A stretch of DNA of 32,000 nt, from assembly GCA_041659405.1 (NCBI GenBank), contig JBAZYK010000003.1, positions 120,001 through 152,000 on the forward strand, given 5' to 3'. This DNA is from Candidatus Altimarinota bacterium (GTDB lineage Bacteria > Patescibacteriota > Gracilibacteria > UBA1369). This document shows positions 1-19,285 of the stretch, piece by piece. The stretch's first letter is position 1; each line of letters begins with the position of its first letter. The position numbers and the translations under genes were made by a program. The notes beneath the pieces were generated by a model, which was given only the letters and a program-made list of their open reading frames with translations, was not told where the DNA came from and did not search any database.

Positions 1-1188
1 GGAGGCCAAGCAGACGATTATTTCGTTACTGAACATGAATATATCGTTGTGTATTGTCGTTCAGACGTTTTTCAGTGGAAAGATGAGTTAGTTCCTGTTG
101 ACGAGGCGAAATTTAACAAAGAGGATGAAAAAGGTAGATATACCGCTGTTAAATTAGCTAAATGGGGCAATACTTCTCGAAAGGAGGATAGGCCTTCTAT
201 GTATTACCCTGTAAAAATGCCTGATGATAAAAATGTTTATCCAATTGCTCCAGATGGTGGGGAAGGGCGTTGGCGAGTTGGCAAAAAACGAATGCAGGAA
301 CTTCTTGAAAATGATTTAGTATTCTGGGGTGAATCAAAAGGAACAATAATTCCTTATGAAAAAATTTACCGTAATGGGTCTGAAATACAAGCCTTGAAAG
401 ACAGGAGCGTTTTATATGAACTAGCTTCTACTGGTGATGGCACTAATGTTTTAACTGAAATTTTTGGAAAAAAAGATTTATTTGAAAATCCTAAACCCAT
501 TCAGCTTGTTCATTTTTTTGCAAGAAATAATACAGGTGATAATGATTTAATTTTAGATTTTTTCGCCGGCTCCGGCACGGCTGCCCACGCCGTCATGCAA
601 CTAAATGCCGAAGATGGCGGCAACCGGAAATGGATTTGCGTACAATTACCAGAAAAATGCAAAGAAGGAACTGAGGCACTAAAAACCGGTTTTGTAACAA
701 TTGCCGATATTGCCAAAGAGCGTATTCGTAGAGCTGGCAAGAAAATTAAAGAAGGGGCAAAGGATAAGAAACTTGATCTTGGATTTAAGGCTTTTAAACT
801 TGATGAAAGCAATTTCAAAATCTGGAATACACAAATAGCAAATGTAGAACAGCTTGAACAGCAATTGATGGATTTCATCGACAATGTCCGTCCTGAATCC
901 TCAGCTGAAGACATGCTTTATGAACTTATATTAAAGAGTGGCAAGGAACTGAATATCGCGATTGAAGAAAAACAGGCCGATGGATGCAAATATCATCGAA
1001 TTGGTGATGGCTCTTTGATTATTTGTTTAGCGGACAAACTCACAAGACCACTCTTTGAGACTATTTTAAAAGACAAGCCGGAAAAGATCATCACTTTGGA
1101 TCGATCTTTTGCCAATAACGACCAACTCAAAATCAACATAATGCTGGATGCAGAACGCGCAGGGGTGAAGGAATTTAAAGTAATCTAA
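1..1188 (+). CDS. mod: Type III restriction-modification DNA methyltransferase (Mod), 3' part; the 5' end lies outside the window
   Basis: Frame +1 is open from base 1, with no stop before the track's GTG at 49. The translation shows TEHEYIVVY at the left edge, the AdoMet-binding motif FFAGSGTAAHAV (FxGxG), and the tail ITLDRSFANNDQLKINI. I associate this layout with beta-class N6/N4 Type III Mod proteins. A Type III Res gene lies downstream in the same tightly coupled operon. Confidence 0.85.
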   Translation, partial: GGQADDYFVTEHEYIVVYCRSDVFQWKDELVPVDEAKFNKEDEKGRYTAVKLAKWGNTSRKEDRPSMYYPVKMPDDKNVYPIAPDGGEGRWRVGKKRMQELLENDLVFWGESKGTIIPYEKIYRNGSEIQALKDRSVLYELASTGDGTNVLTEIFGKKDLFENPKPIQLVHFFARNNTGDNDLILDFFAGSGTAAHAVMQLNAEDGGNRKWICVQLPEKCKEGTEALKTGFVTIADIAKERIRRAGKKIKEGAKDKKLDLGFKAFKLDESNFKIWNTQIANVEQLEQQLMDFIDNVRPESSAEDMLYELILKSGKELNIAIEEKQADGCKYHRIGDGSLIICLADKLTRPLFETILKDKPEKIITLDRSFANNDQLKINIMLDAERAGVKEFKVI

Positions 1189-1198
1189 AAATCACTTT

Positions 1199-1450
1199 AT
1201 GGAGCCACTAAAATTTTCTGACCACAAGGCAAAAATCATCGAAGCTCTCAATGCCCGAGGCCCACAACTTGGCATTCTTGAACCAATAGCTTTGGTAGAA
1301 GGATTTATTAATCAGCCATTACAAATGGAATTTACGGGGGGACTAGTTATTGGCGGCCCAGCAATTCCTATGGTTGCCGTTGTTGGTAATAACAGTGGAA
1401 GAATTTACTATTTTGCCCTTAAAGCTTTATTACCAGATATTCAATTATAA
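1199..1450 (+). CDS. Hypothetical 83-aa protein encoded between mod and res
   Basis: The ATG at 1199 lies 10 nt after the mod stop, and the TAA at 1448-1450 lies 1 nt before the next ATG. The core GGLVIGGPAIPMVAVVGNNSGRIYYF is rich in Gly, Val and Ile and looks beta-strand-like. I recognise no HTH and no family. The coding call rests on the ORF and its tight operon spacing only. Confidence 0.55.
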   Translation: MEPLKFSDHKAKIIEALNARGPQLGILEPIALVEGFINQPLQMEFTGGLVIGGPAIPMVAVVGNNSGRIYYFALKALLPDIQL

Positions 1451-1451
1451 A

Positions 1452-2174
1452 ATGGCTGATCCAATAAAAACAGCTACAGATAGGCCTGATACAACCCCTG
1501 CGACATTTGATGCTCCAACAGCTGCAGCACCCGTGGTTGCCCCTGCGTCTGGAGGAACTCCTGTTGGTCAAAATGTCACCACTCAGCAAGGAGAACAAAC
1601 TGTTCTTTCAAAATCAGATGTTGAAAAAATGATAAATGATGCAGTTGGAAAAGTTGATGAAAAAATACTGCCAATCACTGGGAAAATAGATAAATTCGAA
1701 AAAAGATTAGTAACTGATAAGGCCAGTTTAATGACTGTTTTTGGAATTTTTGCTTCTGTTGTTACATTTCTTTCTGTCGAAATTCAGTTTTTAAAAAATG
1801 TATGTGACCCACTACGTTTGGTCGGTTTTAGTCTGATTTTGCTGGCTTCACTGCTCTCATTTGTTTGGATTCTACACCTAATCGCTAATTATTGGATAAA
1901 CGAAAAAGTTAAAGACCATCCGAAACTGTTAGTGTTTTTTATATTTTTATTGTTTGTTTTTGGAGGATGGCTATTGTTTGCGGGTAAGGATGAAATTTCA
2001 TGCAGAGAAAATTTTTTGTATGAAAAATACAGCAACGATTTTAATACACGGCAGATTGAATTGAAGGATGGATTGGATAAGGAAATGAATGGATTTCAAG
2101 AACAATGGAGTTCGGATTTTAAAAATTTAGAACAAAAGATTAACGATATAAACAATAAAGCTAAAACACCATGA
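1452..2174 (+). CDS. Hypothetical 240-aa integral membrane protein (three predicted TM helices) encoded between mod and res
   Basis: Track ORF 1350..2174 overlaps the previous gene, and the first ATG after that gene's stop is 1452 (MADPIKTATD...). The N-terminus is rich in Pro, Thr and Ala. There are three hydrophobic segments: LMTVFGIFASVVTFLSVEIQFL, LVGFSLILLASLLSFVWILHLIANYW and LLVFFIFLLFVFGGWLLFAG. The C-terminal tail is charged. The stop TGA overlaps the res ATG (ATGA at 2171-2174). Confidence 0.65.
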   Translation: MADPIKTATDRPDTTPATFDAPTAAAPVVAPASGGTPVGQNVTTQQGEQTVLSKSDVEKMINDAVGKVDEKILPITGKIDKFEKRLVTDKASLMTVFGIFASVVTFLSVEIQFLKNVCDPLRLVGFSLILLASLLSFVWILHLIANYWINEKVKDHPKLLVFFIFLLFVFGGWLLFAGKDEISCRENFLYEKYSNDFNTRQIELKDGLDKEMNGFQEQWSSDFKNLEQKINDINNKAKTP

Positions 2175-4924
2175 AACTAAAATTTGAAGCCAATCAGGGA
2201 TATCAACTGGAAGCGATTCAATCAATCGTGGAAGTGTTTGAAGGCCAGCCACTGGAAAGCGGAGATTTTGAAATAGAAATAGCTCCAACTTCAAATCAGC
2301 TTCAAATTGGAAGCGAACTTTTGGTAGGAAATAGGCTTGTTATAGCCGAAAGCGAAATCATTAAAAATATTCATAAAATCCAAGGAAGAAATGGATTGGA
2401 GAAATCTAAAAAACAGATGGCTTCTAGCGGTTTCGGGTCTTCCGGGTTTGGCAGTGGTGGATTTGGTGGTGAGCCTGCCGAATATCTGGAAAGATTACAA
2501 GACGGCATGCACTTTTCGGTGGAAATGGAGACCGGTACGGGAAAAACCTACGTTTACCTCCGCACAATCCACGAGTTATACGCAAAATATGGATTTAAGA
2601 AATTTATTATCGTTGTGCCGAGCATTGCCATCAAAGAAGGCGTAATCAAAAATTTGGAAATCACGAAAGAGCATTTTGCCATGCTCTACAACAATCCGGA
2701 GATGGATTTTCATCTGTATGATCCACGCAAACGCGGACAGCTAAAGAATTTTTCAACAACAAACGCTTTGCAGATTTTAGTTATAAATATCGATTCTTTT
2801 GCCAAAAAGGACAATATCATCAATCAGGAATCAGACTGGGGCGTTCCGATTGAATACATCAAAGCTGTGAGGCCAATTGTGATTGTAGATGAGCCACAAA
2901 ATATGGAAACGCCAATTCGTAAGGAGGCAATTGCCAATTTGAATCCGCTCTGTACACTTCGTTTTTCCGCTACACACAAACATCCTTACAATCTTTTATA
3001 CAAGCTTGATCCGGTGCGTGCGTATGATTTGGGCCTGGTTAAAAAGATTGAGGTGGATTCCGTGTTTTCTGAAGATGCCTTTAATGAGGCTTATTTGCGA
3101 GTATTGGAAATTAAGAGCAATAAAATGAAAATTACAGCAAAAGTGGAGATTGATAAAAGCGATGATTATGGACTTCAGAAAAAGGCGGTGATATTACGAT
3201 CCGGTGATGATCTGTATCCCCTTTCCGGCCACCGTGAAGTTTATAAAGAAGGATATGTTTTGGACCAGATTAATATGGCTGAAAAATATGTATCTTTCAC
3301 GAATGGAAAAACTTATTACATTGGACAAAAGGATGAGGGACTTTTGGAAGAGATCATGAAATATCAAATCATTAAGACGATCCAAAATCATTTTGAAAAA
3401 GAGAAAAAGCTCAAAGATAAAGGCATAAAAGTCTTGTCACTGTTCTTTATCGATAAAGTGGCAAATTACAGAAGTTATAGTGAAAATGGCTGGGTGAAAG
3501 GCAAATTTGCCCAATGGTTCGAAGAAATTTACAAAGAATTTCAGGCAAAACCACAGTTTAAAGGGGTTTTGGAACATTCTGCGGACATAGTGCACAACGG
3601 CTACTTTTCTCAGGATAAAAAAACCGGTGCCTGGAAAGATTCAAAAGATAAAGGCGACGAAGGCGGCTCTTCTAAAGATGATGAACAGGCTTATGAATTG
3701 ATTATGAAAGATAAAGAGCGATTGTTGGACGTAAACACGCCTTTACGGTTTATTTTTAGCCATTCTGCACTTCGTGAAGGTTGGGACAATCCGAATGTTT
3801 TTCAAATTTGTACGCTGAATGAGACCCACTCTGAAATGAAGAAAAGACAGGAAATTGGCCGTGGTTTACGTTTGCCGGTAAATCAGGATGGCGAGCGTGT
3901 GTTTGACCAGAACATCAATATCTTGACGGTGATTGCGAACGAAAGTTATGAAAGTTTTGCCAGATCTTTGCAGACGGAAATTGAGGAAGAATGCGGAGTA
4001 AGTTTCACCGGAAGAATTAAAGATAAAAACAAGCGAAAACCGATACTCTTAAAAAAGGGTTATGAACTTGATCCAAATTTTAAGGATTTATGGGAAAAGA
4101 TCAAACAAAAAACGAAATACGATGTGAATTATCAGACGGCAGAATTGGTCAAAGAAGCGGCAAAAGTTTTGAAAGATATAGCGATTACCAAGCCAAGAAT
4201 CAGCAATGTCCGCGTGAGGCTGGAAATGAATGAAAAAGGTATTGAAACGCAAATGATAACAAGTTCAGGACAGGTAATTGAGAATAATTACGATCTTTCT
4301 TTGATTCCCGATGTTTTGGGCGGCATTCAGGCAAAAACCAAGCTTACAAAAACCACTATTCTGGATATTTTTAATAAAGCCGGAAAAATGACCGACATTC
4401 TGGTAAATCCTCAACAGCTCATGGATGAAGGAAGCAGAATTATTAACGAAACTCTCAATAAAATGATAGTGGATGGAATCAAGTATGAAAAAATTGCCGG
4501 AAGTTTTTACGAGATGCAACTATTTGAAAATGAAGAACTTGAGGGCTATTTGGATAAGTTGGTAGAGGTCAAAGATCAGAAGAAGACACTTTATGACCAT
4601 ATCCTTGTCGATTCAAGCGTAGAAAGCCAGTTTGCGCGAGATTTGGAAACCAGAGAGGACGTAAAATTTTACTTCAAGCTTCCGGGATGGTTCAAAATTA
4701 AAACTCCAATGGGGGGCTATAATCCGGACTGGGCGATAGTTTTTGAAAATGATAAACGAATTTATTTTGTTGCCGAAACGAAATCGGAAGGAGAAATCAG
4801 GGAAAGTGAGGAAATGAAAATCAAATGCGGCAGAAAACACTTTAATACTCTAGGTAATGTCCTTTTTGGTCGCGTGGAAAAAGTTGAAAATATACTTTTA
4901 GGAACTTTGGAGGGAAATCAATAA
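2171..4924 (+). CDS. res: Type III restriction enzyme Res subunit (SF2 helicase-nuclease)
   Basis: The protein is 917 aa. It carries Walker A METGTGKTY, a DEAH-like box IVVDEPQN, ALREGWDNPNVFQICTL, and a motif-VI-like QEIGRGLRLPV. The C-terminus has a PD-(D/E)xK-like segment, YNPDWAIVF...YFVAETK. Size and motif order match Type III Res proteins. Confidence 0.9.
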   Translation: MKLKFEANQGYQLEAIQSIVEVFEGQPLESGDFEIEIAPTSNQLQIGSELLVGNRLVIAESEIIKNIHKIQGRNGLEKSKKQMASSGFGSSGFGSGGFGGEPAEYLERLQDGMHFSVEMETGTGKTYVYLRTIHELYAKYGFKKFIIVVPSIAIKEGVIKNLEITKEHFAMLYNNPEMDFHLYDPRKRGQLKNFSTTNALQILVINIDSFAKKDNIINQESDWGVPIEYIKAVRPIVIVDEPQNMETPIRKEAIANLNPLCTLRFSATHKHPYNLLYKLDPVRAYDLGLVKKIEVDSVFSEDAFNEAYLRVLEIKSNKMKITAKVEIDKSDDYGLQKKAVILRSGDDLYPLSGHREVYKEGYVLDQINMAEKYVSFTNGKTYYIGQKDEGLLEEIMKYQIIKTIQNHFEKEKKLKDKGIKVLSLFFIDKVANYRSYSENGWVKGKFAQWFEEIYKEFQAKPQFKGVLEHSADIVHNGYFSQDKKTGAWKDSKDKGDEGGSSKDDEQAYELIMKDKERLLDVNTPLRFIFSHSALREGWDNPNVFQICTLNETHSEMKKRQEIGRGLRLPVNQDGERVFDQNINILTVIANESYESFARSLQTEIEEECGVSFTGRIKDKNKRKPILLKKGYELDPNFKDLWEKIKQKTKYDVNYQTAELVKEAAKVLKDIAITKPRISNVRVRLEMNEKGIETQMITSSGQVIENNYDLSLIPDVLGGIQAKTKLTKTTILDIFNKAGKMTDILVNPQQLMDEGSRIINETLNKMIVDGIKYEKIAGSFYEMQLFENEELEGYLDKLVEVKDQKKTLYDHILVDSSVESQFARDLETREDVKFYFKLPGWFKIKTPMGGYNPDWAIVFENDKRIYFVAETKSEGEIRESEEMKIKCGRKHFNTLGNVLFGRVEKVENILLGTLEGNQ

Positions 4925-5030: not shown

Positions 5031-5495
5031 ATGAATCTAAATCCAGGTCAAAATCCGAATCCTATCAAAGGTTTCAAGCTTCCTAAAATTGTTATGATAG
5101 GATCAATCATCGGTCTTATTGGTACTATTCTTGGTTTAATTGGCGGAGGGATTGGAATATATGCCGCAATGAATCCACAAGGTGTCTTTAACTTTTTACA
5201 AAAGCAAAACATTTTAAATATTGGGAAGATGTTCCCCCAAGAATTGACTAATCCGGAAGTGCTATCGCAGGAATTGGTCAAAACCGGAAAAACGGCAAAG
5301 GCTAAAATAGTTGCTTTGGAGGATACCGGTAACACTTTTAATATGATGCCGGTTGTCAAAATGACTTTTGAAGTTGAGCCGGGAGTACAAGTTGTTATTA
5401 CTCAACCCATCGCAAGAGTCAACTTACCTTCTGTCGGTCAGTATGCTGAAATTTTGTATGATCCCAACGATCTTACAAAAGCCGCAATTAAATAG
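5031..5495 (+). CDS. Hypothetical membrane-anchored protein (N-terminal TM helix plus small beta-rich domain)
   Basis: The ORF is 154 aa. It has a Gly/Ile-rich TM segment, IVMIGSIIGLIGTILGLIGGGIGIYAA, followed by a soluble domain (...AKIVALEDTGNTFNMMPVVKMTFEV...YAEILYDPNDL). I cannot name a family with confidence. Confidence 0.6.
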   Translation: MNLNPGQNPNPIKGFKLPKIVMIGSIIGLIGTILGLIGGGIGIYAAMNPQGVFNFLQKQNILNIGKMFPQELTNPEVLSQELVKTGKTAKAKIVALEDTGNTFNMMPVVKMTFEVEPGVQVVITQPIARVNLPSVGQYAEILYDPNDLTKAAIK

Positions 5496-5511: not shown

Positions 5512-6756
5512 CTAAAGTTTTTCCGGAACTTCAAAGGCTACCAAAAATGCACTTCCGGATTGCTTGCCAGCTTCAAACCATTTCATAAATTTTGACGTAA
5601 CAGCATCTAAACCGGTTCCTTCCGCCAAACCAGCCGTTAAAGCTTTCGCCATTACTATTTGTTGTACCCCGTTATCAGACCCGAGATCTTTCATCAAACT
5701 ACTGGAAGCAAGGACAATAATATCCCCTTCCCCAATACCTCCAACTTTAGAATCTACAGGTTCAAATTTTTCAAAACCGGCCGCCATAGTATAAGCACCA
5801 GCCACAGCTTCTTCAGAAAGCCCCAAATCCTTAGAAGCTTCTGACAAACGTTCAGCACGGGCACCCAATTTGTTTTTATCCCATTTATTCCAAACTGTCT
5901 GCACTGGAAGTGAATCCAGCTCAAAACCGGCTTCACTTTCCGGATTTCTGTGGATGACAAAATACTGAATATCGCCAGCCGACGACACCTCCAGGACGTG
6001 CTCTTTTAAATCAAGTTCCGCTGCCAAAACAGCCACATTCGAAGAATTGGGCGCAATTGAAGAACTGGATTTAAGACCTTTTACAGCTTTATCCATCAAA
6101 GAAAGCATATCCGAAGAAGTAATTCCCGGATCAAAATTCAAAGCATGCGCAACACTAACCAAAGCCCCATTTGCCAAGATAGCAGCGTCTTTTTCCCCAG
6201 AAGAACCTTCCCCTTTAGCATCTGCGGCAAAAATTTGTAATTTATTGTTATCAACATCAGTCACAAGACCAAAACCAGCCCTATTTTTTGATGGATGATC
6301 AACATCCTGCACAACACCTGGAACCAAATGTCCAACAAAAGTTTTTCCACCCAGATCACAAATCAGCTCTTCATCTTCATTGGAACCACAAACCAAAGCA
6401 AGCGCCCGGGCATCAAGTAATTCCACAGAAGTAGGATCACCTTCTTTTAAGGGGAGACCCAATTCATGTAAATTCGTTATTCCCGGTTTTAAAACCAAAT
6501 CGGCATTACTGATTTTCGATCCAATCAGATTTTCTTTTGGACTTATTACATCCACAACCAATTTTCCACTTTCAGACCGAATACCAGGAACGACCTCTTC
6601 ACCTCCTTTAATAGACAAGTCCCAGTCTAATTCGCCTGATTCAGGCTTCTTTCCCAATCGATCATCCGGCACTGACACCACCCTGGATGTTTGATCATCA
6701 CCATCGTCACCACCATCTGGAGTTTGATTTGCCGCAAATTTTTTTATATCTCCCAT
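5512..6756 (-). CDS. Hypothetical protein with PP2C-like motif order but degenerate catalytic motifs
   Basis: The ORF is 414 aa with an acidic N-terminus. Motifs occur in PP2C order: CGSNEDEE (cf. RxxNED), FAADAKGEGSSGEKDAA (cf. VADGMGGHxxGExAS), SSAGDIQYF (cf. GDSRxY), GDIIVLASSSL (cf. GDxLLLCSDGL), and the terminal AFLVAFEV (cf. DNiTvvvv). The assignment is by eye only. Confidence 0.6.
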   Translation of the reverse strand: MGDIKKFAANQTPDGGDDGDDQTSRVVSVPDDRLGKKPESGELDWDLSIKGGEEVVPGIRSESGKLVVDVISPKENLIGSKISNADLVLKPGITNLHELGLPLKEGDPTSVELLDARALALVCGSNEDEELICDLGGKTFVGHLVPGVVQDVDHPSKNRAGFGLVTDVDNNKLQIFAADAKGEGSSGEKDAAILANGALVSVAHALNFDPGITSSDMLSLMDKAVKGLKSSSSIAPNSSNVAVLAAELDLKEHVLEVSSAGDIQYFVIHRNPESEAGFELDSLPVQTVWNKWDKNKLGARAERLSEASKDLGLSEEAVAGAYTMAAGFEKFEPVDSKVGGIGEGDIIVLASSSLMKDLGSDNGVQQIVMAKALTAGLAEGTGLDAVTSKFMKWFEAGKQSGSAFLVAFEVPEKL

Positions 6757-6956
6757 AAAATTTCTTAATTACATCAGTATATAATACAACAAATATCCAA
6801 ATATTACAACGCAACCACGCCTCATATCTTACAATTATTCCCTCAAAAATATTTCAACAAAGGTCCCGCTTGACCAAACCCGGGCGGAAAGCGAATAGAC
6901 TAAACCGGCATCTTGGCATAAACTGGCTACGCTTTTTAATGAGTCCCTGCCTTACT

Positions 6957-9911
6957 ATGCCTTACGTTGCCCTTGATCTTGAAACCACCGGTTTTGATGC
7001 CGCCAATGATCAAATTATTGAAATCGCCGCCATAAAATTTGAAAGCTCACCGGATGGAGAGCCGGATAAAGCCAAAATCTTGGATACTTTTAGTACACTG
7101 ATTAATCCGGGAATTGCGATTCCGCCCATGATCACGCATATAACCGGTATTAAAGCCGCAGATTTGGTTGATTCTCCGCGTTTTGAAGATGTTCGACAAA
7201 AGTTTTTAGCTTTTATTGGACGTTACCCGATTATTGGCCATAATATTGGCTTTGATGTGACCTTTCTTAAGCAAAAAGGCCTGCCAATAGATAACGAACT
7301 TTATGACACACTGGCAATGGCGGGCATTCTTTTGCCGGATTTGCCTTCGTATAGCCTTGATACACTCAGCCGCTTACTAAAAATCGAGCACAAAAATAAG
7401 CATCGTGCGCTTGATGATACCGAAGCCTGCCGCAAACTTTTCCTTATATTGGAGAAGAAAATTTTTGATATTGACCCACCGGCTCGGGCAAAAATCATCA
7501 ATCTTCTGGAAAAAAGCCGATGGCCTTTAAAAGACTTATTCTTAGAACGATTCAACCTCAAAGGTCGACCTCAAAGGTCGCTTTTCGGCAAGAAAAAACC
7601 AACGAATTCAGATAATTTTGACTTTGAAGCCGAGCTCGCAGCCAAAACAGACTCTTCAGCCATGACCGGAACCGAACATGAATCCGAAGTTGAAGGCCCC
7701 CCCGAAAATCAAAGCTCTTCTAACCTGATCGCCCAAGTTTTAACACCGGAAACTCTTGCCGATTTTTACGACAATGAAGGACCACTTTCCAAGATCATGG
7801 AAGAATACGAAACCCGTCCGCTCCAAAAACTGATGAGTGAAAAAATTCTTGATGCTTTTCAAAAAAGTCATTCTGCTCTGATTGAAGCCGGAACCGGCAC
7901 CGGGAAAACCGCCGCTTATCTTTTAAGCAGCGCCATCTGGAATCAATCTACGCAGCAAAAAATCGTTATTTCCACCTACACTCACAATCTGCAAAATCAA
8001 ATTTTGGAAAAGGATTTGCCGCTGGTGGAAAAGGCGCTCCAACAAATCGATCCGAATTTAAAACTAAAAGTTGCCATTTTAAAAGGACGCAAAAATTATC
8101 TTTCCCTAAAACGGCTTGAGCAATTCATGAAAAAGGATTTTCTTGAAGAATCCGAAGTTATTTTTTTGATGAAGGTCATTTTGTGGATCACACGCGCCGA
8201 TCAAGGCGCGAATCATGCCACCCAAAGCCAAAACACTGCACAATCTCATGAAACTCAAACCACCAACCCCGCTCGGCCATTTACCGGCGACCTGACGGAA
8301 TTAACCCTGCAAGGCCGGGAATTTATGCTCATCGACGAAATTTGTTGTATGGATCACGTTTGTCCGCATGACGACATGGCCTACAAATCAGGCTGCTATT
8401 TGATAAAAGCACGCGCAGCCGCGGAACAAGCCGATTTTATCATCATCAATCACGCCATACTCATTCAAAATGAAATCAGCGAATCGCCACTTTTGCCCGA
8501 ATACAACTATTTAATTGTTGATGAGGCCCATCATCTGGAAAAAATCACCACCGACGCGTTGACCATAACGCTGACGCTTAACATGTTTTTGCGGCCTTTT
8601 CAGAAAATCGAAAAAATTCTGCATTTGATCAACGACCCAAAGCAAAATGGCGATAATCTTAGCCAGCTGAAAAACGAAATCAATCATTTAATGAATCGCG
8701 TTGAAATCTTTTTTGGCTTGATTGGGATCTTTTTGGAAAAAGAAATGGATATGTTTCAATTTCAATATGAACTGAATCTGACTTCTAACAGACTTAATTC
8801 CGCCGACTGGCTTAAGGTAATGGATTCCGCCAAATCGGTCACAAGTCTTGGCGCGGAAGTTCTGACCAAAATTAAAAATTATCTTAATACTTTAGAAGGT
8901 CAGGTAGAAATTCAAACAGAACTTCTTCCGGAAACGGAAAACTCCTCAAACCTGCGCGGGTCCAAGAACTCCTTCAAAAACATGATCGCCGATTTTAAAT
9001 CCGGCCTTTATGAAAGTGAAAAACGCATTATCGACCTGAAAAAAGTCCTGCTTTCTGAAACTAAGCACAATGACATCACCTGGATTTTTAAAAGCCCGGA
9101 AGAGAGTATTGGGCTTAAATGCGCGCCACTTTCCATTGGCGAAAATCTGCACACCATGCTTTTTGGCAAAAAGAAAAGCATCATTTTGACTTCGGCCACA
9201 CTGCGCACCAACGGCAATTTCAATTACATTCGCGGTCAACTTTCGCTTAACAAGGATTTTCAGGAGCTCACACTCCCCTCTCATTTTTCCTATCCCGATC
9301 TGGTCAAAATTATTATTCCGGAAGATCTGCCAGAACCGGCTACAGAAGGCTATTTTTTAAGCTGCGCCAATTTGATTTACGAAATCATCAAAAAAAATGG
9401 TGGCCGGACTTTAGCGCTTTTCACTTCTAAAAAAGCCCTTGCCGCAACATTTCATCAAATCGCCCCAAAATTAAAAGCCGATGGATTCACGCTGCTTGCC
9501 CAAAACATGACCGGCGGCCGCGGCAAAATTCTGGAACATTTTAAGGATGAACCCGACAAATGCGCCATTTTGGGAACAGCCAGTTTTTGGGAAGGTGTGG
9601 ATATTAAAGGCAGCGACCTGACTTGCGTAATCATGCAAAAACTTCCCTTTGATCCACCGGACGATCCGATCATTGCCGCAAGATCCAGAAAGTATGTAGA
9701 CGCTTTTAACGACTACCAGGTACCACGTGCCATTTTGCGCTTTAAACAGGGCTTTGGCAGACTTATCCGCAGCAGCAAAGATACCGGCAGCATTGTAATT
9801 TTAGATACCCGCCTACTTCAAAAATCCTACGGCCACAAATTCCTGGAGTCACTCCCGGAGGGCATCAAAATTCTCTACGGCACCAAAAACAACCTGGCGG
9901 ATTTGCTGTAG
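6957..9911 (+). CDS. dinG: Bifunctional DnaQ-like 3'-5' exonuclease / DinG-family (XPD-like) ATP-dependent DNA helicase
   Basis: Exonuclease motifs are present: ExoI VALDLETTG...IIEIAA, ExoII IGHNIGFDVTFL, ExoIII HRALDDTEAC. Helicase motifs are Walker A EAGTGTGKT, the DEAH box LIVDEAHH, and the C-terminal SFWEGVDI and GFGRLIRS. The track's start is a TTG at 6870. I prefer the ATG at 6957 (MPYVALDLETTG), with the ATG at 6939 as the alternative. Confidence 0.9.
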   Translation: MPYVALDLETTGFDAANDQIIEIAAIKFESSPDGEPDKAKILDTFSTLINPGIAIPPMITHITGIKAADLVDSPRFEDVRQKFLAFIGRYPIIGHNIGFDVTFLKQKGLPIDNELYDTLAMAGILLPDLPSYSLDTLSRLLKIEHKNKHRALDDTEACRKLFLILEKKIFDIDPPARAKIINLLEKSRWPLKDLFLERFNLKGRPQRSLFGKKKPTNSDNFDFEAELAAKTDSSAMTGTEHESEVEGPPENQSSSNLIAQVLTPETLADFYDNEGPLSKIMEEYETRPLQKLMSEKILDAFQKSHSALIEAGTGTGKTAAYLLSSAIWNQSTQQKIVISTYTHNLQNQILEKDLPLVEKALQQIDPNLKLKVAILKGRKNYLSLKRLEQFMKKDFLEESEVIFLMKVILWITRADQGANHATQSQNTAQSHETQTTNPARPFTGDLTELTLQGREFMLIDEICCMDHVCPHDDMAYKSGCYLIKARAAAEQADFIIINHAILIQNEISESPLLPEYNYLIVDEAHHLEKITTDALTITLTLNMFLRPFQKIEKILHLINDPKQNGDNLSQLKNEINHLMNRVEIFFGLIGIFLEKEMDMFQFQYELNLTSNRLNSADWLKVMDSAKSVTSLGAEVLTKIKNYLNTLEGQVEIQTELLPETENSSNLRGSKNSFKNMIADFKSGLYESEKRIIDLKKVLLSETKHNDITWIFKSPEESIGLKCAPLSIGENLHTMLFGKKKSIILTSATLRTNGNFNYIRGQLSLNKDFQELTLPSHFSYPDLVKIIIPEDLPEPATEGYFLSCANLIYEIIKKNGGRTLALFTSKKALAATFHQIAPKLKADGFTLLAQNMTGGRGKILEHFKDEPDKCAILGTASFWEGVDIKGSDLTCVIMQKLPFDPPDDPIIAARSRKYVDAFNDYQVPRAILRFKQGFGRLIRSSKDTGSIVILDTRLLQKSYGHKFLESLPEGIKILYGTKNNLADLL
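7555..7580 (+). repeat. Perfect 13-nt tandem duplication (acctcaaaggtcg x2) inside the dinG interdomain linker
   Basis: Read directly from the sequence: 7555-7567 is identical to 7568-7580. The unit length is not a multiple of 3. Confidence 0.9.
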
Positions 9912-11000: not shown

Positions 11001-11567
11001 ATGTCTACAACCATTTGGATCATTTTAGGAATAGTTGTCCTAATAGTTATCTTTGCAATCGGCATCTACAACGGTCTTATTCAGCTTAAAAACAAGGTGG
11101 ACGAAGCCTGGGCTGACATCGAGACACAACTCAAACGTCGTTATGACCTTATCCCAAACATCGTAGAAACTGTCAAAGGTTATGCCACTCACGAAAAAGG
11201 CACTTTGGAAGAAGTGACCAAAGCCCGCTCGGCAGCCATGGGCGCAGGAACTATGGAAGATAAAGCTCAAGCGGAAAATATGCTTTCCGGAACCTTAAAA
11301 TCACTCTTTGCACTTTCCGAAAACTATCCACAATTACAGGCAAACCAGAACTTTTTGGATCTTCAACAAACTTTAAAACAAGTGGAAGAACAACTTCAAC
11401 TTTCACGCCGTTATTACAACGCTACAGTTCGTGATTTCAACGTTAAAATTGAAGTTTTCCCAAACAACGTTTTTGCCGGTATGTTCAACTTTACCAAACG
11501 TTCATTCTTTGAAGTTGGATCTGAAACTGAACGCGAAAACGTAAAAGTTTCTTTTGATGCCAAATAA
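11001..11567 (+). CDS. lemA: LemA family membrane protein
   Basis: The protein is 188 aa with an N-terminal TM helix. It carries the characteristic LemA sequence IYNGLIQLKNKVDEAWADIETQLKRRYDLIPNIVETVKGYATHEKGTLEEVTKARS ... YPQLQANQNF..LQ..L...E..L...RRYYNATVRDFN. Confidence 0.9.
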   Translation: MSTTIWIILGIVVLIVIFAIGIYNGLIQLKNKVDEAWADIETQLKRRYDLIPNIVETVKGYATHEKGTLEEVTKARSAAMGAGTMEDKAQAENMLSGTLKSLFALSENYPQLQANQNFLDLQQTLKQVEEQLQLSRRYYNATVRDFNVKIEVFPNNVFAGMFNFTKRSFFEVGSETERENVKVSFDAK

Positions 11568-13434
11568 GCCACTTTTGAACGAAGAACAAAAAGCGAAACT
11601 TACCAGGGCCGTCCGGGACGCCAAACAAAATACCTTCTTCAACGGAGGTATTATTGCTTTTTTCCTGATAATTTTTGCCATCGGCTTTGTTACATTTGGC
11701 TGGCTGATGTACATGCAATGGCAATCCTCCAATACATCTACACAAAATAACTGGAAAATCCCCGAATTCAAAGTAAACATGGATATTTACCAGGACGGCC
11801 GGACCTTTATTACCGAAAACATTCAAGCGGACTTCAGCCAAGAAAAGCATCACGGCATTTTCCGCTACATTCCTCTTTATTATAATGACGATCAAAACCA
11901 GAAAATGGATCTGGGAATATATCTTCAAACCATTAGGGATGAAATAGGCAAAATCTGGACATACGACCAAAGTTATCTTCAGGATTCGATCTACTTAAAA
12001 ATTGGCGATGCTAATGTTTATCTTAATTCGCTGGAAACTTATATTATAGATTATCAGGTCAATCACGCCATTCGTTACTATAAGGATCACGATGAAATTT
12101 ATTGGAACATCACCGGAAACGATTGGCCGGTAGCGATTGAACACACCGAAGCAAGCATTACCCTGCCAAAAGACCTGGCTGAAAAAGATTTAAAATTCAC
12201 CTGTTTTACGGGGATAACCGGATCAAAAGACCAAAATTGCACACACAGTATTGAAAAAGCCGAAGATGGCAGCCAAATTTTCACCTTTAAAGCTGATAAC
12301 CTGAAAACTTTGGAAGGTTTAACTGTGGCAGTTGGCTTTCCTAAAGGTGTTATAAACGAAATCGCACCGGTTCCTTACCAAAGTGATTCATATTACCAGG
12401 GCTCTTCAAACGGAGACAATACACCAAATTGGACCATGATCTTCCTGGAAATTTTTGTCCTGCCATTTTTGCTTTCCATTATTTACACAATTTTGTGGTT
12501 TAAAAATGGACGTGATCCCAAAGCAGATAAAACGGCCATCATGCCAATTTATACGCCTCCGGCGGATTTAACCCCGGCAGAAATTGGTGCTTTGGTTAAA
12601 GATTATGTTGAAGAAAAAGACCTTTCCGCCACCATTGTGGATTTATGCGTGCGAGGTTATATGAAAATAAAAGAACTGGCCAACCACGATTTCCAGTTTA
12701 TAAAATTAAAAGATTTTGCCAAAGATAATTCCTTGAAAGATTATGAAAGAGAGTTACTGCACAGCCTTTTTAAGGATTTCGATAAACGCAAGTTGAGCAG
12801 TTTAAAACAACATTTTTCTCAAAGTTTTGCGAAGATCAAAAAAATTATTTATGAAAATTTAATTAAAAAAGGATTTTATGATTCTTCACCAGAAAAAATC
12901 ATCGATAAATTCCAGGGATTGGGTATTGCCTTTATTTTCTTTGGAATATTTTTTATAGCTCCGGTCTCTTTGTGGATTAGCGGAAGCCTTATTTTGAGCG
13001 GAATTTTATCGGGCATTTTTGCTAAAATAATGCCACGCAAAACCAAAGCGGGAGTCAATATGCGTCAACAAATTTTGGGTCTGGAAGAATATATTAAAAC
13101 TGCCGAAACCGATCGAATCAAATTTCAGGAAAAGGAAAATCTGTTCGAGAAACTGCTGCCCTATGCCATGGTTTTGGGCTTAACCGACAAGTGGACCAAA
13201 GCTTTTGCCGGCATTACCACTACCCCACCGGAGTGGTACGAAACCACAAGCTCCAGATCGATGGTCTTTTCCACGGACGTCTTCCTTTCGAATCTAAATG
13301 TAATGAGCACCAGCATCAGTGCAACCTTTTCAGCTCCGGCACCTTCCCACGGCAGCGCCTTTGGAGGCGGTGGTGGCGGAGGCGGTGGATCTTCCGGCGG
13401 CGGAGGAGGCGGCGGTGGTGGTGGAGCGTGGTAA
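11557..13434 (+). CDS. DUF2207-family membrane protein, paralogue 1, with poly-Gly C-terminal tail ending GGAW
   Basis: The ATG at 11557 overlaps the end of lemA; the track's start is a TTG at 11554. The protein has an N-terminal signal-anchor helix and an extracytoplasmic domain (HHGIFRYIP, HDEIYWNITGNDW). It also has TM helices, the box TAETDRIKFQEKENLFEKLLPYAMVLG, and the tail GGGGGGGGSSGGGGGGGGGGAW. LemA followed by DUF2207 is a gene pairing I recall as common. Confidence 0.85.
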   Translation: MPNKPLLNEEQKAKLTRAVRDAKQNTFFNGGIIAFFLIIFAIGFVTFGWLMYMQWQSSNTSTQNNWKIPEFKVNMDIYQDGRTFITENIQADFSQEKHHGIFRYIPLYYNDDQNQKMDLGIYLQTIRDEIGKIWTYDQSYLQDSIYLKIGDANVYLNSLETYIIDYQVNHAIRYYKDHDEIYWNITGNDWPVAIEHTEASITLPKDLAEKDLKFTCFTGITGSKDQNCTHSIEKAEDGSQIFTFKADNLKTLEGLTVAVGFPKGVINEIAPVPYQSDSYYQGSSNGDNTPNWTMIFLEIFVLPFLLSIIYTILWFKNGRDPKADKTAIMPIYTPPADLTPAEIGALVKDYVEEKDLSATIVDLCVRGYMKIKELANHDFQFIKLKDFAKDNSLKDYERELLHSLFKDFDKRKLSSLKQHFSQSFAKIKKIIYENLIKKGFYDSSPEKIIDKFQGLGIAFIFFGIFFIAPVSLWISGSLILSGILSGIFAKIMPRKTKAGVNMRQQILGLEEYIKTAETDRIKFQEKENLFEKLLPYAMVLGLTDKWTKAFAGITTTPPEWYETTSSRSMVFSTDVFLSNLNVMSTSISATFSAPAPSHGSAFGGGGGGGGGSSGGGGGGGGGGAW

Positions 13435-13436
13435 CA

Positions 13437-13501
13437 GATCGCTGAAAGCGATCCGCGCCCGCCCTAAAGCGGGCATAGCAAATAACTATCGCGCAGCGAT
13501 A
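13437..13501 (+). other. Three consecutive short GC-rich stem-loops in the gap between the DUF2207 paralogues
   Basis: The stem-loops are gatcgct-gaa-agcgatc (13437-13453), gcccgc-cctaaa-gcgggc (13457-13474) and tatcgc-gca-gcgata (13487-13501). None is followed by a T-run. Confidence 0.4.
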
Positions 13502-13537
13502 CATTATCAAAAACGAAAATTCATTTAATACCCCCCC

Positions 13538-15361
13538 ATGAAACTCACAAAAAAAATTGCGGCAGGAATAATTCTGATACTTACAATAACCCTGATATCC
13601 GCATTACATATTGGAAGTACAAATATCACAAAAGCCCAAGATTCCACATCTTTTGATGATTTTTCTTCTGATGTTACCTCCCCGGATTCCACCAATGATT
13701 GGAGCATCACAAATTTTGATGCCGATATTCAGGTTCAAAAAGACGGCTCCGTGTTGGTCGATGAGACAATCACTACCGACTTTCCACCGGAAAGTGAACA
13801 CCATGGCATTTTCCGCTTTATACCAATTAATTATAAAGACGATTTTGGCAATAATGTCTCAATCAAGCTAAAAGTTTTAAGTATCCAAGATACCAAAGGC
13901 AACGAATGGCCTTATGAAACCTCTTATTCCGGACAAAATATTACGTTAAAAATCGGTGATCCGGACAAAATAATTCATGGACAAAATATTTACAAAATAA
14001 CTTATCAGGTTGATCGCGCACTTTTGTTTTTAAAAGATCACGATGAACTTTATTGGAACATCACCGGTGATCAATGGGAAACAGACATCCAAAAAGCCAG
14101 TGCCACCATTACCGTTCCTGCGGAAATTCAACAAAAAGATTTAAAAGCGGATTGTTATACCGGCGCTTACGGCTCAACCGACAAAAAATGCGACCTTAAA
14201 ATTCAAGATAATACCACAACGGTAACTTCAACTACCGACTTTAAATATGGTGAAGGCCTTACAGTGGCCGTTGCTTTCCCAAAAGGAATTATTAAAGAGC
14301 CAACCGCCCAGGAAAAAATTACGTGGTTTTTAGCAGACAACTGGGGGTATTTCTTGCCGGTAATTGCCTTTATCGCCCTCTTTTCCCTTTGGTTCACACG
14401 CGGTCGTGATCCTAAAGAAGGCGTAAAAACGACCATAATGCCTTATTATGAAGCTCCGGATAATTTAACCCCCAGTGAAATTGGAACCCTGGTCGATGAA
14501 AAAGCCGATATGCAAGATATTACCTCCACAATTATTGATATGGCCGTGCGGGGGTATCTTAAAATTATCGAAATCCAGGAGAAAAAAATAATTTTCAACA
14601 AAACCGATTACGAACTGGAATTACAACAAGAATTTGAAAACGACAACAAAGTCCAGGAGCACGAAAAAGCTGTTCTAAGAGCCATTTTTGATGCTTCAAA
14701 CAACTCAAAAGGAGCAAAAGTTAAACTCTCTACACTCGCCAATAAATTTTACATGTTTATCCCGGGTATCAAAAAAAATATTTATGAATTAACGGTATCT
14801 AAAGGTTATTTCCCGGTAAATCCGGACAACGTTCGCAAAATATATTTAGGTGTTGGTATCGGTTTAATTGTTTTGGGATTTTTCAGTTTTATGTATTTCT
14901 CGAATGGCGGTTCTGTTTCAGTCCCCATTGGACTTGTTTTAAGTGGGTTGATCATCATAATTTTTTCCAATTTCATGCCGATCAAAACCAAAAAAGGAGT
15001 TGAGATCTATTACAAAATAAAAGGCCTGAAAGAGTTCATCAATACTGCCGAAGCCGATCGCCTTAAATTCCAGGAAAAAGAAAATCTGTTCGAAAAACTG
15101 CTTCCTTATGCCATGGCCCTTGGAATTGCCGAAAAATGGTCCAAAGCTTTTGAAGGAATCTATAAAAATCCCCCAAGCTGGTATCAAAGCAGCAATCCAA
15201 ACTTCATGAACAATTTTTCCACTTATTATTTTGTTCATAGCCTGAATTCGTTTTCCAACACAATGCAACAAACCCTGGCCTCCACTCCAAAATCATCCGG
15301 CGGAATTGGCGGAGGCTTTTCCGGTGGCGGCTTTGGCGGCGGCGGCGGCGGCGCGTGGTAG
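13538..15361 (+). CDS. DUF2207-family membrane protein, paralogue 2, with poly-Gly C-terminal tail ending GGAW
   Basis: The protein is 607 aa with a signal peptide, MKLTKKIAAGIILILTITLISALHIG. It has the same conserved boxes as paralogue 1: HHGIFRFIP, HDELYWNITGDQW, WFTRGRDPK and TAEADRLKFQEKENLFEKLLPYAMALG. The tail is GGGFSGGGFGGGGGGAW. Confidence 0.85.
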   Translation: MKLTKKIAAGIILILTITLISALHIGSTNITKAQDSTSFDDFSSDVTSPDSTNDWSITNFDADIQVQKDGSVLVDETITTDFPPESEHHGIFRFIPINYKDDFGNNVSIKLKVLSIQDTKGNEWPYETSYSGQNITLKIGDPDKIIHGQNIYKITYQVDRALLFLKDHDELYWNITGDQWETDIQKASATITVPAEIQQKDLKADCYTGAYGSTDKKCDLKIQDNTTTVTSTTDFKYGEGLTVAVAFPKGIIKEPTAQEKITWFLADNWGYFLPVIAFIALFSLWFTRGRDPKEGVKTTIMPYYEAPDNLTPSEIGTLVDEKADMQDITSTIIDMAVRGYLKIIEIQEKKIIFNKTDYELELQQEFENDNKVQEHEKAVLRAIFDASNNSKGAKVKLSTLANKFYMFIPGIKKNIYELTVSKGYFPVNPDNVRKIYLGVGIGLIVLGFFSFMYFSNGGSVSVPIGLVLSGLIIIIFSNFMPIKTKKGVEIYYKIKGLKEFINTAEADRLKFQEKENLFEKLLPYAMALGIAEKWSKAFEGIYKNPPSWYQSSNPNFMNNFSTYYFVHSLNSFSNTMQQTLASTPKSSGGIGGGFSGGGFGGGGGGAW

Positions 15362-19223: not shown

Positions 19224-19285
19224 TGAAAAAACCTTACCTTTTATCTACTAAAAGACCAAAGAAAATATACACGAAAACGGCCCAC

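Follow-up and report, generated by a model that had tools for sequence, protein, structure and literature searches.

In the 32,000-nucleotide (nt) stretch of Candidatus Altimarinota DNA analyzed here (contig JBAZYK010000003.1 of a metagenome-assembled genome (MAG), positions 120,001 to 152,000 of the forward strand; referred to below as the window), the modification gene mod and the restriction gene res of a Type III restriction-modification (R-M) operon are separated by two small genes, open reading frame A (ORF-A) and ORF-B. We found that this gene pair, A-B, lodges preferentially in R-M operons of any type, where it points in the same direction as the R-M genes and lies within a few bases of them. 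Scans seeded with A identified 18 genome and 51 metagenome loci, many of the metagenome contigs being short, and 59 A-bearing loci were left after the removal of duplicates. The neighbouring genes were identified with Pfam and subsequently with phmmer, for which the proteins annotated in this way served as references. The A-B pair is R-M-embedded in 28 of the 59 non-redundant loci, and an R-M gene is present within −3 to +4 genes of A-B in 26 of the 48 loci that have enough flanking sequence to be evaluated. With genes of the same loci at a distance of at least six positions as a control, R-M genes account for 53 of the 166 near genes versus 2 of the 144 far genes (Fisher p = 2e-14), and all 53 near R-M genes are on the A-B strand. 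The gaps are short on either side, ranging from −4 to +24 nt between an upstream R-M gene and A (21 loci), and from −11 to +77 nt between B and a downstream R-M gene (12 loci). The original prediction, made from the sequence of the window, was that the locus could be a composite module in which DNA sensing by Res and Mod is linked to a membrane effector, or alternatively that the pair could be a hitch-hiking TA-like (toxin-antitoxin-like) cassette, and that homologues occurring mostly outside R-M contexts would speak against it. The distribution of homologues is not of that kind, and the recurrent link with R-M genes stands, whereas this link turned out to be neither specific for Type III systems nor obligatory.

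The R-M genes next to A-B belong to five classes, which are listed here with the numbers of loci and the gene orders (MTase, methyltransferase).

Type I, 13 loci: HsdM..HsdS-A-B-HsdR (L014, L016, L028, L057)
Type II, 7 loci: MTase-RE_BsaWI-A-B-MTase (L022, L029, L031, L034); DpnII (L047)
Type III, 5 loci and the window: Mod-A-B-Res (L015, L064); Mod-x-Res-A-B (L005, L036); Res-A-B (L027)
Type IIG, 2 loci: Type IIG-A-B (L035, L038)
Type IV, 1 locus: GmrSD_N+HNH, then A-B (L026)

Additional cases, which were seeded with B and are outside these class counts, are L080 (Type I), L082 (BsaWI Type II), L079 (MTase + DUF6996/7) and the P0172 contig (Mod-Res-A-B). Based on the spectrum of R-M types in the host operons, we rejected the possibility that B is a Type III-specific subunit. 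Together with the stand-alone copies described below, this spectrum makes a conserved physical coupling to Res or Mod unlikely, and it favours an autonomous module that makes use of R-M operons.

The Type III operon in the window and the A-B cassette

The four genes of the operon in the window are the following.

1 to 1188, plus strand: 3′ part of the Type III methyltransferase gene mod; an uninterrupted reading frame from the first base of the window to the TAA at 1186-1188
1199 to 1450, plus strand: ORF-A, 83 amino acids (aa); ATG at 1199, TAA at 1448-1450
1452 to 2174, plus strand: ORF-B, a membrane protein of 240 aa; ATG at 1452, TGA at 2172-2174
2171 to 4924, plus strand: Type III helicase-endonuclease gene res, 917 aa; its ATG lies inside the sequence ATGA and overlaps the end of ORF-B

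These coordinates, the 10-nt gap between mod and ORF-A, the single base between the ORF-A stop codon and the ORF-B ATG, and the ATGA overlap were all read directly from the sequence and are as originally described. The identification of the flanking genes as a Type III mod and res likewise held when they were compared with PADLOC profiles. The 5′ end of mod is cut by the window start, so that the N-terminal part of Mod lies outside the window; the remainder matches MTase_III (PDLC03634, 3e-91, profile positions 267-621 of 621) and the Pfam family N6_N4_Mtase (9e-10), which identifies it as an N6/N4 beta-class MTase of the Type III Mod kind. The res product matches REase_III from profile position 1 (PDLC03647, 5e-290), and it combines the superfamily 2 helicase (Pfam ResIII, 7e-15) with the C-terminal PD-(D/E)XK endonuclease (RE_endonuc, 7e-35, residues 804-904) that define a Type III Res; its match to NCBIfam PRK15483 has a value of 1e-97, which is under that model's cutoff. 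Since mod reaches the last position of its profile and res starts at the first position of its own, the Type III mod and res genes are intact around the insert. In the characterised Type III systems EcoP1I, EcoP15I, HinfIII and StyLTI, res directly follows mod. The operon in the window resembles these systems in having an intact mod and res, but ORF-A and ORF-B intervene over positions 1189-2170, and a cassette is likewise present between the two genes in L015 and L064. The separation of mod and res by the two-gene cassette amounts to 976-983 bp in these three operons. No promoter-like or terminator-like sites were found on the plus strand between positions 1100 and 2300, where their counts are at or below the expectation from shuffled sequences, and no direct or inverted repeats of the kind that border transposons were found around 1189-2174.

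The association between A and B is much tighter than that between the pair and R-M genes. B is located directly after A in 49 of the 55 loci with room for it, at a distance of −14 to +7 nt, and L007 and L009 encode a B-like protein that is more divergent. Seven look-ups that were seeded with divergent B proteins revealed an ORF of 84-90 aa directly upstream every time. The recurrence of this juxtaposition in dozens of unrelated genomes takes the arrangement beyond chance. At the DNA level, similarity between the window and other loci is restricted to positions 1189-2041, which lie within the cassette, and this indicates that the moving unit is the A-B pair itself. The pair was found in Patescibacteria (the candidate phyla radiation, CPR), Legionella, Chlamydiales and other lineages. 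As judged from these sequence comparisons, A-B is an autonomous, horizontally mobile cassette of two translationally coupled genes in which A always precedes B. A tblastn search with A gave no match in 72,556 plasmids or 50,697 phage records, and three matches to A were found in IMG/VR, two of which are duplicates of metagenome loci with divergent A genes that lack B.

Copies of A-B that stand away from R-M genes have FtsZ, YchF, Maf or NDK/HisRS as neighbours, while other A-B neighbours include SIR2_2, an AAA-ATPase with PDDEXK_9, a Cas4-like nuclease, and a Zeta toxin with IS110. In Legionella pneumophila, A-B is found alone at the edge of a mobile island. In some genomes of this species, an ISL3-family transposase gene splits B and leaves A intact (L070 and L073, both at 7432-8607), and the same was observed in L. 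gratiana (L004, 8426-9601). All three loci have the insertion in the same place relative to A, from which it is separated by 183 nt on the downstream side. The L. pneumophila loci L071 and L072 have an intact B of 197 aa. The loss of B with retention of A in Legionella would fit a B protein that is dispensable or toxic.

A number of other features of the host operons were recorded. They contain other passengers, namely KilA-N, DUF3800, AlbA_2(Schlafen)+HATPase_c_4 and RhuM genes and an NTase_sub_bind gene that adjoins an HsdS fused to a Polbeta nucleotidyltransferase domain (L014 4868-5781; L016 5690-6547 and 8709-10130; L005 2444-4108; L035 2929-3963; L080 1438-4573). HEPN/MNT-like passengers were noted as well. 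The host operons appear to be general landing pads for accessory modules. In the complete Gracilibacteria chromosome L002 (8871-11984), the HsdR downstream of A-B is present as two ORFs of 474 and 529 aa about 100 nt apart, which may represent either a pseudogene or a genuinely split subunit. Beside the BsaWI-type operon of L082, a 729-aa tyrosine integrase is encoded on the minus strand (6516-8705), with an intein (Intein_splicing + LAGLIDADG_3) within its Phage_integrase domain.

The ORF-A and ORF-B proteins

Homologues of ORF-A were found in 82 clusters. An alignment of 27 sequences from Patescibacteria, Legionella and other Gammaproteobacteria has a mean column identity of 56%, with F6, F36, G52, P57, G67, L74 and P79 as invariant residues and GFINQP...IGGPxIPMVAVVGxxSGRIYYFALKALLP as the signature. 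When compared to the closest relatives, the ratio of nonsynonymous to synonymous substitution rates (dN/dS) is 0.04-0.2 for ORF-A and 0.13-0.48 for ORF-B, with dS being saturated for both genes. It had been suggested beforehand that a lack of coding conservation in the two ORFs would weigh against the original prediction. Instead, dN is far below dS, and the A sequence is conserved across phyla, which shows that A and B are real conserved genes under purifying selection.

The AlphaFold2 model of ORF-A has a mean predicted local distance difference test (pLDDT) score of 90.8. It consists of an N-terminal helix (residues 6-23), strands at residues 30-40, 55-63 and 69-73, and a short C-terminal helix, so that ORF-A is modelled as a small soluble protein composed of a helix and a three-stranded, zinc-ribbon-like sheet. 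No fold relatives were found in the PDB or BFVD at E ≤ 0.001, no sequence match was found in the PDB, and no family was assigned by Pfam, NCBIfam or PADLOC. The ORF-A of the window contains no cysteines, and it therefore lacks the two CxxC knuckles with which a zinc ribbon binds zinc. However, a CxxC...CxxC arrangement is present at two turns in 3 of the 147 members of the ORF-A family, and these three relatives have sub-threshold matches to the zinc-binding domain PF08421 (2e-4 to 0.03). The rare CxxC relatives and their PF08421 matches point to a zinc-ribbon fold from which the metal site has been lost in nearly all members. The fold of ORF-A is thus probably derived from a zinc ribbon, but the protein in the window is not one of the zinc-binding members.

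The possibility that ORF-A is a controller (C) protein, a small DNA-binding protein with a helix-turn-helix (HTH) motif, had not been an obvious one from the beginning, and we rejected it here because no HTH was found with Pfam or NCBIfam, because the model consists of one helix and a three-stranded sheet, and because the Type II operon in L082, which has the same cassette, carries a separate HTH_3 gene as its own controller.

Two further observations concern the A family. In L054 (approximately 6661-7300), two tandem A paralogues of 92 and 100 aa precede a single B of 147 aa, with AAA-ATPase_like/PDDEXK_9 upstream. The most divergent A homologues (37-43% identity) were found in L017/L066/L076 (1489-1713) and L061/L075 (7001-7240). 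The gene maps of these loci have no downstream B-family gene, and the contigs are viral according to IMG/VR; in these homologues the A fold may serve another purpose.

The ORF-B family is large. Searches of a word-indexed database gave 15 direct matches and 122 matches by profile, and an exhaustive profile search of 1.84 billion representatives gave at least 1012 representatives of 50%-identity clusters at E ≤ 1e-3, 540 of them at E ≤ 1e-10. The best 150 of these at least 1012 matches are all clear family members. In line with the original description, in which no family was recognised for either protein, ORF-B belongs to no family in Pfam, NCBIfam or PADLOC, and a Pfam scan of 83 diverse ORF-B relatives did not reveal a consistent family. 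Phage_holin_3_6 was weakly matched by 2 of these 83 relatives (best value 1.3e-5), and the other weak matches are scattered over unrelated hydrophobic families. The match of ORF-B itself to MFS_1 (E = 0.004, well below the cutoff) was dismissed as hydrophobic noise. The PDB contains no fold or sequence relatives of ORF-B, and neither A nor B was assigned to a family by PHROGs, in which the only matches were weak ones to families of unknown function.

The AlphaFold2 model of ORF-B (mean pLDDT 79.8) agrees with the originally proposed layout of a disordered N-terminus, a charged helix, three transmembrane (TM) helices and a charged C-terminal tail. The segments, all on the plus strand, are listed below with their window coordinates.

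1452 to 1610, residues 1-53: P/T/A-rich disordered N-terminus, pLDDT 46-53
1611 to 1724, residues 54-91: charged juxtamembrane helix, predicted to be cytoplasmic; part of the model helix 54-116
1725 to 1799, residues 92-116: TM1, the most conserved segment, with the signature TVFGIFASxVTFLSVEIQ
1809 to 1898, residues 120-149: TM2, after the short loop NVCDP with the conserved Cys118
1923 to 1982, residues 158-177: TM3, after a K-rich loop that is predicted to be cytoplasmic
1992 to 2165, residues 181-238: long, acidic helix at the C-terminus that is predicted to face outward, pLDDT 95-98

The N-terminus varies in length and sequence among the homologues, and its alignment columns are mostly gaps. 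In the model helix 54-116, the last ~25 residues are hydrophobic. Among 88 family members, the residues G98, F100, F106, E110 and G125 do not vary, and Q112 and F137 hardly do. Averaged over the family, the number of K and R residues is 3.5 ahead of TM1, falls to 1.6 in loop 1, rises to 3.3 in loop 2 and is 2.4 after TM3. According to the positive-inside rule, this pattern places the N-terminus inside, and loop 1 and the C-terminus outside, and thus suggests an N-in/C-out topology. The residues Cys118 and Cys184 strongly covary, both being present in 60 family members, neither in 32 and only one of them in 9 (Fisher p = 7e-17). Since both cysteines are on the same predicted face, this is consistent with an extracytoplasmic disulfide, and a Cys118-Cys184 bond is therefore suggested as a prediction. 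Short family members, in which the C-terminal helix and the two cysteines are missing, retain TM1-TM3 and are still accompanied by A.

Relation to known systems and possible roles

Accessory modules embedded in R-M operons are of a known kind; the A-B pair itself is absent from Pfam, NCBIfam, PADLOC v2 and PHROGs and has no recognisable fold. Our full-text literature search returned embedded accessory genes as a concept and no description of the A-B pair. One such module is PrrC, an anticodon nuclease whose gene is embedded in a Type I R-M operon and which guards EcoprrI (PMC12707154). Like A-B, the accessory gene in this system (and in the related case of RloC) is placed between modification/specificity and restriction genes and is co-transcribed with them, and PrrC is thought to act as a back-up, suicide-type response (PMC12707154). 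The layout of the window, the 53:0 strand bias and the few-base gaps at other loci show the same manner of embedding for A-B. However, neither the ABC-ATPase-like N-domain nor the anticodon-nuclease C-domain of PrrC and RloC was detected in A or B with Pfam, NCBIfam or PADLOC, and there is no sequence or fold similarity to PrrC. The effector candidate of A-B is instead a membrane protein, and the pair is not bound to one R-M family and often has no R-M gene nearby. In such cassettes without a nearby R-M gene, latency would have to be independent of an R-M enzyme, which argues that it does not depend on such an enzyme in general. Other precedents are the HEPN, Sir2, ParB and REase-fold toxin-like genes reported in R-M operons by Makarova et al. 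in 2012 (PMC3506569) and the rlo genes, which are passengers embedded in Campylobacter Type I (hsd) loci (PMC2928727). As is the case for A-B, these are small genes of unknown function that recur in hsd or mod-res operons, but they belong to other protein families. To our knowledge, none of the described R-M passengers is a pair of a small zinc-ribbon-like protein and a three-TM protein, and none has been documented across Types I, II, IIG, III and IV.

Type II toxin-antitoxin (TA) systems with a zinc-ribbon antitoxin domain, such as MqsA/YgiT, have a tightly overlapping two-gene operon in which the small protein comes first and the toxin is an RNase. The A-B genes are organised in the same way, being small, adjacent, co-directional and abutting or overlapping, with the small gene first, and moving as a unit; moreover, the rare A relatives carry a four-cysteine zinc ribbon. 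In contrast to MqsA, A lacks an HTH and any other DNA-binding domain, and homology to MqsA could not be detected; B is a membrane protein and not an RNase. Neither a DNA-binding antitoxin nor a known toxin superfamily was recognised, there being no family or fold match for A or B. With SLATT, RexB, KwaA, ZorAB and class III holins, B shares the appearance of a small multi-TM protein with flanking helices, a defence context and a soluble partner. However, A and B have no PADLOC match, there is no SLATT or DUF4231 match in Pfam, and B does not match the profiles of the known membrane effectors or holins (SLATT, RexB, KwaA, Zorya, holins). Because the full set of defining features was found neither for PrrC/RloC, nor for C-proteins, type II TA systems, zinc-binding ribbons or known membrane effectors, A-B is not a member of any named family.

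We tentatively favour, with slightly less than even confidence, the view that A-B is expressed together with the R-M enzyme as an accessory module of a toxin-like or abortive-infection-like kind and provides a second line of defence. B, with its three TM helices, would be the effector; the coiled-coil helices on its flanks would allow it to oligomerise, and the invariant E110 and nearly invariant Q112 of TM1 would line or gate a membrane lesion. A would be the cytoplasmic, zinc-ribbon-derived partner that either restrains B or relays the trigger. Since the host operons are mechanistically unrelated, this trigger would more likely be a generic consequence of infection or failed restriction than a contact with Res or Mod. 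Our preference is based on the anatomy of the pair, a small cytoplasmic partner with an oligomerisation-prone three-TM protein whose conserved TM helix is studded with polar residues, on the company of KilA-N, AlbA_2/HATPase_c_4, DUF3800, RhuM and HEPN/MNT-like passengers in the operons, on the Legionella loci that have lost B but not A, and on the precedents of PrrC-EcoprrI, the Campylobacter rlo genes and the toxin-like genes in R-M operons. Several points weigh against it. A and B match no known defence, toxin, holin or SLATT effector model, and no antitoxin, DNA-binding or sensor domain can be recognised in A. Since about 45% of the evaluable loci have no nearby R-M gene, co-operation with R-M is not obligatory, and the R-M enrichment might simply mirror the sites at which an insertion is tolerated or co-transferred. 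In addition, the modelled outward-facing C-terminal helix and cysteine pair would fit surface sensing or entry blocking as well as a pore. It should also be considered that ORFs were called in a simple manner and that the phmmer reference set was limited, which makes the R-M counts lower bounds and leaves the other neighbours incompletely known. A further proposal, which we consider possible yet doubtful, is that A-B is a widespread, generic R-M companion in defence. In this case B would kill or arrest the cell, or keep DNA from entering, whenever restriction fails or is subverted, irrespective of its type, and A would be the cytoplasmic trigger or brake.

The alternative of a selfish TA or addiction cassette, with A as antitoxin and B as membrane toxin, which hitch-hikes in R-M operons so as to be co-transferred and stabilises them with no role in phage defence, is in our estimate unlikely. 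It would account for the small upstream gene that abuts or overlaps a larger one (−14 to +7 nt), for the stand-alone copies that adjoin recombinases, insertion sequence (IS) elements and a Zeta toxin, for the ISL3-inactivated B with a retained A in Legionella, and for the company of unrelated R-M types. However, A has no HTH, ribbon-helix-helix or other DNA-binding fold that is typical of type II antitoxins, and the cassette is absent from the plasmid and phage records searched, whereas addiction modules are usually common on plasmids and phages. Furthermore, the precise insertion within operons (53:0 strand bias, few-base gaps) exceeds what plain hitch-hiking needs, and TA and abortive-infection functions are not mutually exclusive. 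Sequence analysis does not separate an abortive-infection-like module from a hitch-hiking TA-like cassette.

The placement of A-B between the modification and restriction genes and its co-transcription with them in many operons (S-A-B-R, Mod-A-B-Res), as well as the reported membrane association of some Type I enzymes, could also be explained by a dedicated accessory of the R-M enzyme, which would serve as a membrane tether at the site of phage DNA entry or control restriction during establishment (restriction alleviation). We regard this as improbable, because the five R-M classes are mechanistically different and include the single-chain IIG and the modification-dependent GmrSD enzymes, on all of which a conserved interaction surface is implausible. 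Also, the position in the operon varies, with A-B after Res in L005, L036 and P0172, and no R-M gene is nearby in about 45% of the evaluable loci. Defence at the level of the envelope, where B acts through its C-terminal helix as a superinfection-exclusion-like blocker or as a sensor of DNA injection, independently of R-M but alongside it, has a similarly small chance of being correct. This idea draws on the positive-inside pattern that places loop 1 and the C-terminal helix outside, on the covariation of the outer-face cysteines (60/32/9, p = 7e-17), and on the fact that it is in its N-terminus and C-terminal helix that B varies within the family, as expected for a surface under diversifying pressure. 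The topology is, however, a prediction, B has no similarity to known superinfection-exclusion proteins, and the retention of TM1-TM3 and A in the short members that lack the C-terminal helix and cysteines points to the TM bundle as the site of the core function of B. Finally, the lack of any family annotation could be taken to mean that ORF-A and ORF-B are chance frames in a long mod-res spacer. This is refuted by the conservation data and can practically be dismissed: the homologues number in the hundreds and keep their order and spacing across several phyla, dN is well under dS, and AlphaFold2 gave confident models for both proteins.

No anti-phage defence is more abundant than R-M systems, on which CPR/Patescibacteria rely heavily, and the genes embedded in R-M operons are known, though hardly explored, as a source of second-line immunity. 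Among these, A-B stands out as an unusually clean candidate. If A-B is a companion of R-M systems, it would extend the guard principle of PrrC from one Type I family to all R-M classes, with a fold derived from the zinc ribbon and a family of membrane effectors that would both be new, and it would be especially important in CPR/Patescibacteria. As a defence or guard module in general, A-B would enlarge the defence repertoire by a new membrane effector and a new fold of a small protein and help to explain layered immunity in CPR bacteria with small genomes. If A-B is only an addiction cassette, it would document how selfish modules colonise R-M operons. The A and B families would merit Pfam, PADLOC or DefenseFinder models, and the presence of the pair in Legionella pneumophila means that it is available in a culturable organism.

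TGA usage and other genes in the window

In the NCBI record of the MAG (Candidatus Gracilibacteria, WC843_02360), ORF-B is 242 aa long, which implies that TGA was read as Gly (code 25) and that the gene ends at the TAA at 2178-2180. The overlap of ORF-B with the res start is 4 nt if TGA is the stop codon, and 10 nt if TAA is. No in-frame TGA is present in the 8783 codons of the 16 main genes in the window. These genes end with TAA (10), TAG (5) or TGA (1), the sole TGA being the end of ORF-B, while TGA is the commonest off-frame stop triplet in the window (601). As there is neither an in-frame TGA nor another gene that ends with TGA, the window does not decide between the two stops of ORF-B. 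It gives no evidence for TGA as Gly and looks like DNA of a lineage in which TGA is nearly unassigned. In L021, L044, L048, L056 and L069, ORFs become much longer when TGA is read as sense, and the A-B cassette is therefore also present in genomes that appear to use code 25 or code 4, in which a survey based only on table 11 would miss or truncate genes.

Downstream of the R-M operon, the window contains housekeeping genes (DinG-like helicase, UvrB, class II ribonucleotide reductase) and SLH surface proteins. Directly after res, a 154-aa protein with a hydrophobic N-terminal segment is encoded (5031-5495), followed on the minus strand by an acidic protein of 414 aa (5512-6756); neither has a Pfam match. 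The gene at 6870-9911 encodes a 1013-aa fusion of an N-terminal RNase_T/DnaQ-like exonuclease and a DinG-type helicase (DEAD_2, Helicase_C_2), and it is a repair gene of the housekeeping type, not a component of a defence island. The regions 11545-15361, 15366-19244 and 28295-31999 contain tandem paralogous DUF2207 membrane proteins (629 and 610 aa) and two very large SLH-domain surface proteins, one of which also carries FG-GAP repeats. The predicted SLH anchoring suggests that this Gracilibacteria MAG comes from an organism with an S-layer-bearing envelope.

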